A stretch of DNA of 64,000 nt from the NCBI RefSeq assembly GCF_022846255.1, contig NZ_AP025682.1, one strand, 5' to 3'. A program made the position numbers and the translations under genes. Source of the stretch: Escherichia coli. GTDB lineage: Bacteria > Pseudomonadota > Gammaproteobacteria > Enterobacterales > Enterobacteriaceae. Positions 17,866 through 20,757 of this stretch are shown here, piece after piece (position 1 is the first letter of the stretch; every line of letters begins with the position of its first letter). The notes below the pieces were generated by a model. The model was not told the origin of the DNA, did not search any database, and saw only the letters and a list, made by a program, of their open reading frames with translations.

Positions 17866-18130
17866 AAGGAGTCCCTCCGCACTGTCTGAAACAGTACAGA
17901 AATGTCTTCAGGCGTGGCGAAGCCTTACCTGAAGGTAATAAAGCTGAGCAGGGACGTTAAAACGTCACGGCCTTACGCATCCGGTAACGCCGTGAAAAGA
18001 CGGGCTTACCGGAAAAGTTTTAATCTCCGTCGAGGGAGAGGCGTGGGATCAGGTTCCATATAACCTCCGGTAAGTGAAAAAAGCGCCGCAAATAATAAGG
18101 AGAATCCAATAATATTCGTAGCATTTATGG
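17866..18130 (-). promoter_or_regulatory. mgtA 5' leader region (Mg2+/proline-responsive leader containing mgtL)
   Basis: ~260-nt untranslated interval between PhoP-box promoter and mgtA ATG, containing the proline-rich mgtL ORF. Confidence 0.6.
18006..18059 (-). CDS. mgtL: mgtA leader peptide MgtL (17 aa, proline-rich)
   Basis: Reverse complement encodes [17 protein letters not shown], inside mgtA leader. Confidence 0.85.
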
Positions 18131-18153
18131 CGATATAATACCTGCTGGCAACT

Positions 18154-18170
18154 AAACCAACGATAAACCA
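18154..18170 (-). promoter_or_regulatory. PhoP box of the mgtA promoter
   Basis: Plus strand TAAACC-aacga-TAAACC = minus strand GGTTTA-N5-GGTTTA direct repeat, with TATTAT -10-like hexamer ~12 bp downstream. Confidence 0.75.
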
Positions 18171-18243
18171 GACTTTACCCATTGCTGAATGCACAGGTAA
18201 AGTTAGGCTCAAATAATTAAACAACACGTTATGGGACAACAGG

Positions 18244-19191
18244 ATGCAAAATCGGCTGACCATCAAAGACATCGCGCGCTTAAGCGGCGTGGGGAAATCT
18301 ACGGTTTCCCGGGTGCTGAATAACGAAAGCGGCGTGAGCCAGCGCACGCGCGAGCGTGTTGAAGCAGTGATGAATCAGCATGGATTTTCCCCTTCCCGCT
18401 CTGCGCGCGCTATGCGTGGGCAAAGCGATAAAGTGGTCGCCATCATTGTTACCCGTCTGGATTCGTTGTCAGAAAATCTCGCCGTTCAAACCATGCTGCC
18501 AGCGTTCTATGAACAAGGTTACGATCCAATCATGATGGAAAGTCAGTTTTCCCCACAATTAGTTGCCGAACATTTGGGGGTGCTGAAACGGCGTAATATC
18601 GACGGCGTAGTGCTGTTCGGTTTTACCGGCATAACAGAAGAAATGTTAGCCCACTGGCAGTCATCGCTGGTTCTGCTGGCGCGTGACGCAAAAGGCTTTG
18701 CTTCGGTCTGTTATGACGACGAAGGGGCAATCAAGATCCTGATGCAACGGCTGTATGACCAGGGACATCGTAATATCAGCTATCTCGGCGTGCCGCACAG
18801 TGACGTGACGACCGGTAAGCGACGTCACGAAGCCTACCTGGCGTTCTGCAAAGCGCATAAACTGCATCCCGTTGCCGCTCTGCCAGGGCTTGCTATGAAG
18901 CAAGGCTATGAGAACGTAGCAAAAGTGATTACGCCTGAAACTACCGCGTTACTGTGCGCAACCGACACGCTGGCACTTGGCGCAAGTAAATACCTGCAAG
19001 AGCAACGCATCGACACCTTGCAACTGGCGAGCGTCGGTAATACACCGTTAATGAAATTCCTCCATCCGGAGATCGTCACCGTAGATCCCGGTTACGCCGA
19101 AGCTGGACGCCAGGCGGCCTGCCAGTTGATCGCGCAGGTCACCGGGCGCAGCGAACCGCAACAAATCATCATCCCCGCCACCCTGTCCTGA
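18244..19191 (+). CDS. treR: Trehalose operon repressor (LacI family)
   Basis: 315-aa ORF with N-terminal LacI HTH (TIKDIARLSGVGKSTVSRVLN). Confidence 0.94.
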   Translation: MQNRLTIKDIARLSGVGKSTVSRVLNNESGVSQRTRERVEAVMNQHGFSPSRSARAMRGQSDKVVAIIVTRLDSLSENLAVQTMLPAFYEQGYDPIMMESQFSPQLVAEHLGVLKRRNIDGVVLFGFTGITEEMLAHWQSSLVLLARDAKGFASVCYDDEGAIKILMQRLYDQGHRNISYLGVPHSDVTTGKRRHEAYLAFCKAHKLHPVAALPGLAMKQGYENVAKVITPETTALLCATDTLALGASKYLQEQRIDTLQLASVGNTPLMKFLHPEIVTVDPGYAEAGRQAACQLIAQVTGRSEPQQIIIPATLS

Positions 19192-19230
19192 TCGTTTCCC
19201 GAACGATAAATTGTGATCTTCGCTGTGTTT

Positions 19231-19244
19231 CGGGAACGTTCCCG
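19231..19244. promoter_or_regulatory. Perfect palindrome in treR-treB spacer (candidate TreR operator and/or treR terminator stem)
   Basis: cgggaacgttcccg followed by TTTTT; related half-site cgtttcccgaacg ~30 bp upstream. Confidence 0.45.
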
Positions 19245-19309
19245 TTTTTAAATTTTTCCGCGCAATATATTCTGCAGCCAACCAAAAATGTCATCTGCCA
19301 TGGGGCTTT

Positions 19310-20731
19310 ATGATGAGCAAAATAAACCAAACGGATATCGATCGGTTGATTGAAATGGTCGGCGGGCGCGGCAATATTGCGACGGTGAGCCACTGTATTA
19401 CTCGCCTGCGCTTTGTCCTCAACCAACCGGCCAATGCCAGACCGAAAGAAATTGAGCAACTCCCCATGGTGAAAGGCTGTTTCACCAATGCCGGGCAATT
19501 TCAGGTGGTGATTGGCACCAACGTGGGTGATTACTATCAAGCACTGATTGCGTCAACCGGACAGGCGCAGGTTGATAAAGAGCAGGTAAAAAAAGCCGCC
19601 CGGCAGAATATGAAATGGCATGAGCAGTTGATCTCTCATTTCGCGGAGATCTTCTTCCCATTGCTGCCCGCGTTGATTAGTGGTGGTTTGATCCTCGGTT
19701 TTCGCAATGTGATCGGCGATTTGCCCATGAGCAACGGTCAGACGCTGGCGCAAATGTACCCTTCCCTGCAAACGATCTACGATTTTCTGTGGTTGATCGG
19801 TGAAGCGATCTTCTTCTACCTGCCGGTCGGGATTTGCTGGTCAGCGGTGAAAAAAATGGGTGGTACACCGATCCTCGGTATCGTGCTTGGCGTAACGCTG
19901 GTTTCTCCACAGCTGATGAACGCTTATCTGCTCGGGCAGCAGCTGCCGGAAGTATGGGACTTTGGCATATTCAGCATCGCCAAAGTGGGCTATCAGGCGC
20001 AGGTCATCCCGGCACTGTTAGCCGGACTGGCGCTGGGCGTTATTGAAACTCGTCTTAAGCGCATCGTGCCGGATTACCTCTATCTGGTGGTGGTGCCCGT
20101 CTGTTCGCTGATCCTCGCGGTGTTCCTCGCCCATGCGCTGATTGGTCCGTTTGGTCGCATGATTGGCGATGGCGTTGCCTTTGCGGTACGTCACCTGATG
20201 ACCGGCAGCTTTGCTCCGATTGGCGCGGCATTGTTTGGCTTCCTGTACGCCCCGCTGGTGATCACCGGCGTACACCAGACCACGCTTGCTATTGATTTGC
20301 AGATGATTCAAAGCATGGGTGGCACGCCAGTGTGGCCGCTGATTGCGCTGTCGAATATTGCTCAGGGCTCCGCCGTGATAGGTATTATCATTTCCAGCCG
20401 CAAGCACAATGAACGCGAGATCTCCGTGCCTGCCGCTATCTCCGCCTGGCTTGGAGTCACTGAGCCTGCTATGTACGGCATCAACCTGAAATATCGCTTC
20501 CCGATGCTGTGCGCGATGATTGGTTCTGGTCTGGCAGGATTGCTATGCGGCCTGAACGGCGTTATGGCGAATGGCATCGGCGTAGGCGGCCTGCCGGGAA
20601 TTCTCTCGATTCAGCCGAGCTACTGGCAGGTGTTTGCGCTGGCAATGGCTATCGCCATCATCATCCCGATTGTACTCACCTCGTTTATCTATCAGCGGAA
20701 ATACCGCCTGGGCACGCTGGACATTGTTTAA
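19310..20731 (+). CDS. treB: PTS trehalose-specific EIIBC component
   Basis: 473-aa ORF, N-terminal EIIB cysteine motif (VSHCITRLRF) plus polytopic EIIC. Confidence 0.94.
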   Translation: MMSKINQTDIDRLIEMVGGRGNIATVSHCITRLRFVLNQPANARPKEIEQLPMVKGCFTNAGQFQVVIGTNVGDYYQALIASTGQAQVDKEQVKKAARQNMKWHEQLISHFAEIFFPLLPALISGGLILGFRNVIGDLPMSNGQTLAQMYPSLQTIYDFLWLIGEAIFFYLPVGICWSAVKKMGGTPILGIVLGVTLVSPQLMNAYLLGQQLPEVWDFGIFSIAKVGYQAQVIPALLAGLALGVIETRLKRIVPDYLYLVVVPVCSLILAVFLAHALIGPFGRMIGDGVAFAVRHLMTGSFAPIGAALFGFLYAPLVITGVHQTTLAIDLQMIQSMGGTPVWPLIALSNIAQGSAVIGIIISSRKHNEREISVPAAISAWLGVTEPAMYGINLKYRFPMLCAMIGSGLAGLLCGLNGVMANGIGVGGLPGILSIQPSYWQVFALAMAIAIIIPIVLTSFIYQRKYRLGTLDIV

Positions 20732-20739
20732 TTTTCTTC

Positions 20740-20757
20740 GGGGCGCAATTGCGCCCC
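20740..20757 (+). other. Intercistronic perfect 18-bp palindrome between treB and treC (possible mRNA stem-loop)
   Basis: ggggcgcaattgcgcccc; no T-run follows, treC ATG 24 bp downstream. Confidence 0.5.

Follow-up and report, generated by a model that had tools for sequence, protein, structure and literature searches.

The lac control region follows the order lacI, O3, CAP site, promoter and O1. Operators of the LacI/GalR family are described by a general rule, an even palindrome with a central CG (PMC4052901). TreR represses treBC with trehalose-6-phosphate as the inducer, while trehalose stabilises operator binding (PMC3938415; bioRxiv 10.1101/2025.04.02.646877). Three texts (PMC3938415, PMC3505978 and bioRxiv 10.1101/2025.04.02.646877) credit Horlacher and Boos 1997 with direct TreR binding that is relieved by trehalose-6-phosphate, and RegulonDB is said in PMC3505978 to list two TreR operator sites at treBC. 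The operon is also under glucose and CRP control (PMC3938415; PMC2743635; PMC5888115), and both Cra and CRP were bound to treBC in ChIP-exo (PMC5888115). Camas, Alm and Poyatos 2010 (PMC2978694) scanned the DNA that precedes LacI-family genes and the operons downstream of these genes, and their supplementary file 6 gives 'cgtttCGGGAACGTTCCCGttttt', in class KSTVSR, for gene 18266, which is E. coli K-12 treR according to their sequence file. This was the single E. coli treR site that they reported, located before the downstream operon, in a search whose second pass allowed several sites per region and included coding sequence.

The window, which is the whole 64-kb stretch of DNA analysed here, belongs to E. 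coli phylogroup B2; bases 18100-19400 showed 100% identity to CFT073 and Nissle 1917, in which treR and treB are annotated. The locus order is treR-treB-treC (Table 1). The treR gene ends in a TGA stop codon at 19189-19191 and encodes a protein with the Pfam domains LacI HTH (residues 6-51) and Peripla_BP_3. The PDB entry 4XXH, 'HTH-type transcriptional regulator TreR', matches residues 61-315, corresponding to the effector domain; in the PDB only this domain was found, and no TreR-DNA complex. An Rfam search of 18900-19600 gave nothing at E <= 1. The window differs from K-12 at two intergenic positions, both outside the palindrome, namely 19200, where K-12 has T and the window C, and 19226, where K-12 has C and the window T; coordinates were converted as K-12 = 4485490 - window coordinate.

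Table 1. Features of the treR-treB intergenic region and its flanking genes, in window coordinates.
Feature	Position	Strand	Basis and remarks
treR, LacI-family trehalose repressor, 315 aa	18244..19191	+	ORF; RefSeq annotation of the identical CFT073 sequence
Best secondary TreR-class match in the intergenic region, CCTGATCGTTTCCC, central CG 19193-19194	19187..19200		-2.2 bits, top 0.23% of window positions
Upstream element TCGTTTCCCGAACGA, putative small hairpin or pseudo-operator, directly 3' of the treR stop	19192..19206		Sequence, inverted repeat, RNA fold
Predicted CRP site	19209..19230		TGTGA 19212-19216; centre 19219.5
TreR operator, 14-bp palindrome CGGGAACGTTCCCG	19231..19244		Exact match, conservation, matrix score, published listing; centre 19237.5
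T-run, predicted weak -35 hexamer of the treB promoter (TTTTTA here, TTTTCG in Enterobacter)	19245..19250	+	17 bp upstream of TAnnnT
Predicted -10 hexamer of the treB promoter, TATTCT, pattern TAnnnT	19268..19273	+	Conserved columns TA.gcT, fixed distance from the operator
treB, trehalose PTS IIBC component, regulated gene	19310..20731	+	ORF; RefSeq annotation

The initial annotation described a perfect 14-bp palindrome followed by TTTTT downstream of treR, and both are present at 19231-19244 and 19245-19249. The palindrome occurs as a single exact copy within the 64-kb window, the T-run is followed by AAATTTTT, and the sequence 3' of the palindrome reads TTTTTAAATTTTT. The same CGGGAACGTTCCCG followed by TTTTT is present in K-12 (4466259-4466241, minus strand). 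The arms CGGGAA and TTCCCG enclose a central CG at 19237-19238, so that the element has the even symmetry and central CG of LacI/GalR operators. It also has the position typical of this family, adjoining the LacI-family repressor gene treR, with its centre 72 bp 5' of the treB ATG (19310).

A symmetric position weight matrix was built from 64 published sites of the KSTVSR class (TreR-class), one of which is the E. coli site itself, and on this matrix the palindrome scored 20.8 bits, the top of the ~64,000 window positions, with a runner-up at 12.0. The palindrome thus carries the motif of regulators that have the same recognition helix. A search of papers for the operator strings returned only a knockout primer and an unrelated Streptomyces paper. 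The initial annotation had offered a TreR operator as one reading of the palindrome, and this reading held: the architecture is typical of the family, the element is invariant across genera, its matrix score is the highest, and the same 14-mer had already been predicted in print. The operator is already known as the TreR site of the E. coli treBC promoter, a real but ordinary feature.

Conservation was followed in 80 loci encoding TreR at 83-99% identity, sampled from Escherichia, Citrobacter, Salmonella, Enterobacter, Leclercia, Lelliottia, Kosakonia, Raoultella, Klebsiella, Kluyvera, Buttiauxella, Trabulsiella, Yokenella and others. Their treR-treB intergenic regions were extracted, yielding 72 distinct regions that span at least 15 genera. 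The 12-bp core GGGAACGTTCCC (19232-19243) was identical in all 72, and the block TTTCGGGAACGTTCCC(A/G)TTTT around it (19227-19248) was essentially unchanged, TTTC...ATTTT being nearly invariant, while the flanking DNA diverged and carried hardly any information or none. With the sequences aligned on the core, the consensus read tttatTGTGATC.tcgC...gTTTCGGGAACGTTCCCaTTTT, then a variable stretch and TA.gcT. The site was therefore kept at orthologous loci while its surroundings diverged, as in a LacI/GalR operator, and the DNA-reading head (residues 4-31) and hinge (residues 50-60) of TreR were invariant across 82 sequences of the same set. The outer C-G pair that makes the palindrome 14 bp long was found in only 8/72 regions, with 62/72 reading CGGGAACGTTCCCA; within the palindrome, conservation is limited to the 12-bp core.

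Individual loci showed further variation. In Escherichia sp. E1V33 and E. whittamii (loci L004 and L005, also L030 and L034) treR is intact, with neither the operator nor treB downstream, and GGAACGTTCC is absent everywhere in these loci; TreR seems to have lost its adjacent target there. A second exact GGGAACGTTCCC was found in Trabulsiella odontotermitis (L040 2118-2129), in an AT-rich spacer ~880 bp upstream of treR and ~60 bp before an ATG; it could be an additional TreR target or have arisen by chance. In Enterobacter chuandaensis and E. quasihormaechei (L036 ~1613-3416; L046 ~3948-5809), 1.7-1.8 kb are inserted between treR and the CRP site and operator, and in L036 a second copy of the treR 3' end follows the insert; both look like mobile insertions. 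Several Citrobacter spp. (L006, L008, L009, L011-L014, L023) have a palindromic, GC-rich insert resembling REP elements in the stretch from the treB promoter to the start codon, e.g. GCCGGATGGCGACGC...GCGTCTTATCCGGCCTAC, and in Kluyvera (L074-L081) the treB 5' UTR is ~70 nt longer and has its own inverted repeats. Within E. coli, strain 88_1577 (L083, NZ_CP074804.1) has treR annotated as a pseudogene with its N-terminus missing, next to an intact intergenic region and operator. In HB101 (H40, NZ_CP184671.1) the intergenic match begins only at query base 39 (window 19227), exactly where the operator block starts, which suggests a rearrangement or deletion that removed the treR 3' end and the CRP site.

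The region around the palindrome may be a class I CRP-dependent sigma-70 promoter, a type with hexamers spaced 16-18 bp apart and a CRP site near -61.5: it has TAnnnT at 19268-19273, a weak TTTTTA 17 bp upstream of it and, for a start at 19281, a predicted CRP site centred at -61.5 with a non-consensus right half. The predicted -10 hexamer is TATTCT here, TACTCT in Citrobacter and TAGGCT in Enterobacter, with an alternative register TATATT at 19266-19271, and transcription of treB would start near 19280-19281. By its distance of 17 bp from the conserved TAnnnT, the T-run would occupy the -35 position of a weak, activator-dependent promoter. Across the orthologous regions ATTTT is conserved and the sequence 3' of it is variable. 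The T-run is thus most simply read as the -35 region of the treB promoter and not as part of a terminator. The initial annotation had placed the palindrome between treR and the treB promoter; instead, it lies inside this promoter. A palindrome directly upstream of the treB -35 was reportedly footprinted by Horlacher and Boos in 1997. A consensus promoter scan did not call the weak treB promoter.

CRP would bind at 19209-19230, as judged from the left half-site TGTGATC (19212-19218), which is invariant across genera and stands at a fixed spacing to the operator in all orthologous regions. In the CRP consensus scan the site was not within 3 mismatches of TGTGAN6TCACA, the left half alone being canonical. 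The best local match to the Cra consensus GCTGAATCGATTCAGC, GCGCAATATATTCTGC at 19260-19275, overlaps the predicted treB -10; it has 5 mismatches and lacks the central CG, and only 27 of the ~64,000 window positions match equally well. In the available part of the Term-seq data of Adams et al. 2021, a strong 3' end marked as not Rho-dependent maps to window 19314 (K-12 4466176, minus strand; score ~47,800), 4-5 nt into the treB ORF. A 3' end at this place implies that the treB promoter yields a ~35-nt leader RNA in abundance, which could be an attenuated, paused or decay product.

Taken together, the palindrome is very probably the primary TreR operator, within a treBC promoter whose layout points to dependence on CRP. 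In the proposed mechanism, the GGGAAC half-sites on either side of the central CG would hold a TreR dimer. The operator is centred at 19237.5, between the predicted CRP site (19219.5) and the -35 hexamer (19245-19250); with a start near 19281, it would be at ~-43.5 and the CRP site at ~-61.5, with a possible shift of ~3 bp. From this position, bound TreR would occlude both the -35 region and the space that RNA polymerase needs for contact with CRP, and treBC would be switched off sterically. Trehalose-6-phosphate would then free the operator of TreR, in line with the binding and inducer release credited in the literature.

The palindrome could also be a chance sequence without function or serve as the treR terminator. 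Perfect 14-bp palindromes do occur at the chance rate in the window (6, compared with 5.0 +/- 2.2 in first-order Markov simulations), and it is position and conservation, not symmetry, that set this one apart. A functionless origin has next to no chance of being correct, since the element is invariant across genera while its intergenic surroundings diverge, has the highest matrix score in the window, and sits in the promoter of the operon controlled by the neighbouring LacI-family repressor; it was rejected on the conservation data. The terminator reading, also put forward in the initial annotation, holds that a hairpin CGGGA-ACGU-UCCCG with its UUUUU tail ends the treR transcript. As a dual use of the operator, it would insulate treB from read-through: the terminator scan flagged the site for a stem of five pairs (four G-C) with a loop of 4 nt and TTTTT behind it, the hairpin has a folding energy of -7.0 kcal/mol, most genera have no other hairpin between the treR stop and the operator, and the treR transcript must end somehow. 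However, the two terminator-like sites in the 600-bp region are not a significant excess over 0.8 +/- 0.9 in shuffles, the z-score of the operator hairpin is -1.3, and the hairpins at the Term-seq-mapped treB and treC 3' ends of the same operon are far stronger, at -17.7 and -20.4 kcal/mol. Only the 8/72 regions mentioned above have the outer C-G pair, the remaining 64/72 folding at ~-5.4 kcal/mol, and in 48/72 no more than 4 of the following 8 nt are T, compared with a 5-T run in 24/72. The conserved part of the T-run is accounted for by its -35 position: ATTTT would be kept because it starts the -35 element, not as a terminator U-tract. The available part of the Term-seq tables of Adams et al. 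2021 lists no minus-strand 3' end between K-12 4466176 and 4470376 and no treR 3' end anywhere, and treR is possibly below detection there. With a weak hairpin, an unconserved outer pair and T-run, and no listed 3' end, termination was discarded as the main function; a terminator role of the palindrome is unsupported, and its dual use is distinctly improbable. To a similarly low degree of likelihood, the operator might double as a conditional insulator, with bound TreR acting as a roadblock, aided by the weak hairpin and U-run, that keeps treR transcripts out of treB, and with read-through adding to treB expression upon induction. In the treB-treC spacer (20742-20755) there is another perfect 14-bp palindrome, GGCGCAATTGCGCC, which forms the -17.7 kcal/mol hairpin; it adjoins the 'primary' treB 3' end in the available Term-seq data (K-12 4464728, window 20762) and is followed by CCCCCTCGC, with no U-tract.

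Next to the treR stop, cgtttcccgaacg was found at 19193-19205, inside TCGTTTCCCGAACGA. The initial annotation suggested that this element is a related repressor half-site sharing a GGGAAC/GTTCCC core with the palindrome. This core proved not to be shared exactly: upstream the sequence is GTTTCCC, with GGGAAA on the opposite strand, and the common part consists of TTCCCG and an 8-nt inverted repeat formed by TTCCCGAA (19196-19203) and TTCGGGAA (19229-19236), TTCCCGAA being an inverted copy of the operator left flank. The perfect repeat depends on C19200, which turns TTCCTGAA into TTCCCGAA and occurs in ~4% of the genomes of E. coli; T stands at this position in K-12 and in all other E. coli sequences examined. 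The exact 40-mer of the window was found in 200 of 5419 complete E. coli genomes, and 5204 others differ from it by ~1 base. K-12 reads TCGTTTCCTGAACGA, with T at the position equivalent to 19200, and Citrobacter has CTTTCTGAGCG; the C at 19200 therefore appears to be derived. The half-site reading did not stand up well, given a negative TreR-class score, an element not conserved outside Escherichia and Citrobacter, and a similarity that needs a minority allele; the upstream 'half-site' appears weak and lineage-specific. A Cra site was also considered for this element, with no good match; the nearest best Cra match is the one at 19260-19275.

Two functions can be weighed for the upstream element. 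As a second, auxiliary TreR operator (19187-19206), it would cooperate with the main one across the CRP site, in the manner of lac O3-CAP-O1. This arrangement is possible but doubtful. It agrees with the two TreR operator sites at treBC attributed to RegulonDB and with a LacI-TreR chimera that behaves as if looping DNA (both in PMC3505978), and some TreR-class regulators of other taxa have two strong sites ~55 bp apart (Camas et al. 2010, PMC2978694). Within the locus, it is favoured by the 8-nt inverted repeat and by the match at 19187-19200, which has the second-best intergenic matrix score (top 0.23%) and a central CG 44 bp from the main dyad. However, the score of this match is negative (-2.2 bits here, -3.65 bits for the K-12 allele), inserting one base at the centre of the register brings no improvement, and ~0.14 equally good sites are expected by chance among the ~60 upstream positions. 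Conservation of the element stops at Escherichia and Citrobacter, in contrast to the invariant main operator and TreR reading head, and the perfect 8-mer hinges on the minority allele C19200 (200/5419 for the exact 40-mer). In addition, TreR ends at residue 315, directly past the core domain, and therefore presumably has no LacI-like C-terminal tetramerisation helix. Camas et al. 2010 reported one site only for E. coli treR, although several were allowed (PMC2978694). A TreR site was thus rejected on its negative score in both the ungapped register and that with an extra central base; at most, 19187-19200 could be a weak auxiliary TreR site. The element may still be the second TreR site of RegulonDB at treBC, for which the evidence in the sequence is weak, and it is a possibility that the B2-specific C19200, making a perfect TTCGGGAA half-site, alters auxiliary TreR binding in the CFT073/Nissle lineage. 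The other function, in which the treR mRNA would carry a small hairpin at its 3' end, as a weak terminator or a stabilising stem-loop, and the element would not be a protein-binding site, is unlikely. The fold AUCGUUU-CCC-GAACGAU has -5.0 kcal/mol and z = -2.7 in a 23-nt context, and at the same position Leclercia, Silvania and some Kluyvera have unrelated hairpins that are stronger (-6.5 to -10 kcal/mol, with z as low as -3.9) and precede TTTATT; these look like genuine small terminators. The E. coli hairpin, however, is followed by AAAUUGUGA (AAAUUG in RNA) and not by a U-tract, its z-score is only -0.9 in a 30-nt context, no hairpin occurs at that position in Enterobacter, Klebsiella/Raoultella, Kosakonia and Salmonella, and the available part of the Term-seq data of Adams et al. 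2021 lists no 3' end at the element. A conserved RNA hairpin was therefore dismissed, the structure being lineage-specific only. A long hairpin joining the upstream element to the operator left half (19190-19241, -16.5 kcal/mol) was dismissed as well: its z-score is -2.2 here, with a median of -0.5 over 72 orthologues and 2/72 below -2, and it is not conserved.

With the palindrome read as the primary TreR operator, the order of CRP site, operator, -35 and -10 would explain why treBC needs both cAMP-CRP and trehalose-6-phosphate. As this is a textbook-type operator of a well-studied sugar regulon, the analysis matters mainly for correct annotation: the T-run would be labelled as the promoter -35, conservation assigned to the 12-bp core alone, and the second half-site marked as resting on a minority allele.

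The closest known system is the TreR operator of E. coli K-12 treBC (listed by RegulonDB and by Camas et al. 2010), which is the same element with an identical palindrome and TTTTT; the K-12 operator region differs from the window at 19200 and 19226 only, outside the palindrome. Several traits are shared with lac, namely a LacI-family repressor gene that directly precedes, in the same orientation, the operon that it controls, a CRP site near -61.5 (in tre, at the predicted position), a weak operator-like sequence overlapping the end of the repressor gene, and a stretch between repressor gene and operon that lacks a strong terminator. In contrast to lac, where the operator lies downstream of the start (+11), the main TreR operator would lie between the CRP site and the -35 (~-43.5); TreR, with 315 aa, ends right after the core domain, and the tre upstream pseudo-site falls far short of lac O3 in strength and is unconserved. 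The tre site resembles intrinsic terminators in being a short G+C-rich inverted repeat followed by a T-run on the coding strand, 3' of a stop codon, but differs from them in its 5-bp stem (-7 kcal/mol), its unconserved outer pair and T-run length, and the lack of a listed 3' end. Finally, the two-operator TreR-class loci (KSTVSR, Camas et al. 2010) share with the tre site the (T/C)GGGAAC half-site family and the location ahead of the downstream operon; they carry two strong palindromes ~55 bp apart, whereas E. coli has one strong palindrome and at most a degenerate second one 44 bp away.
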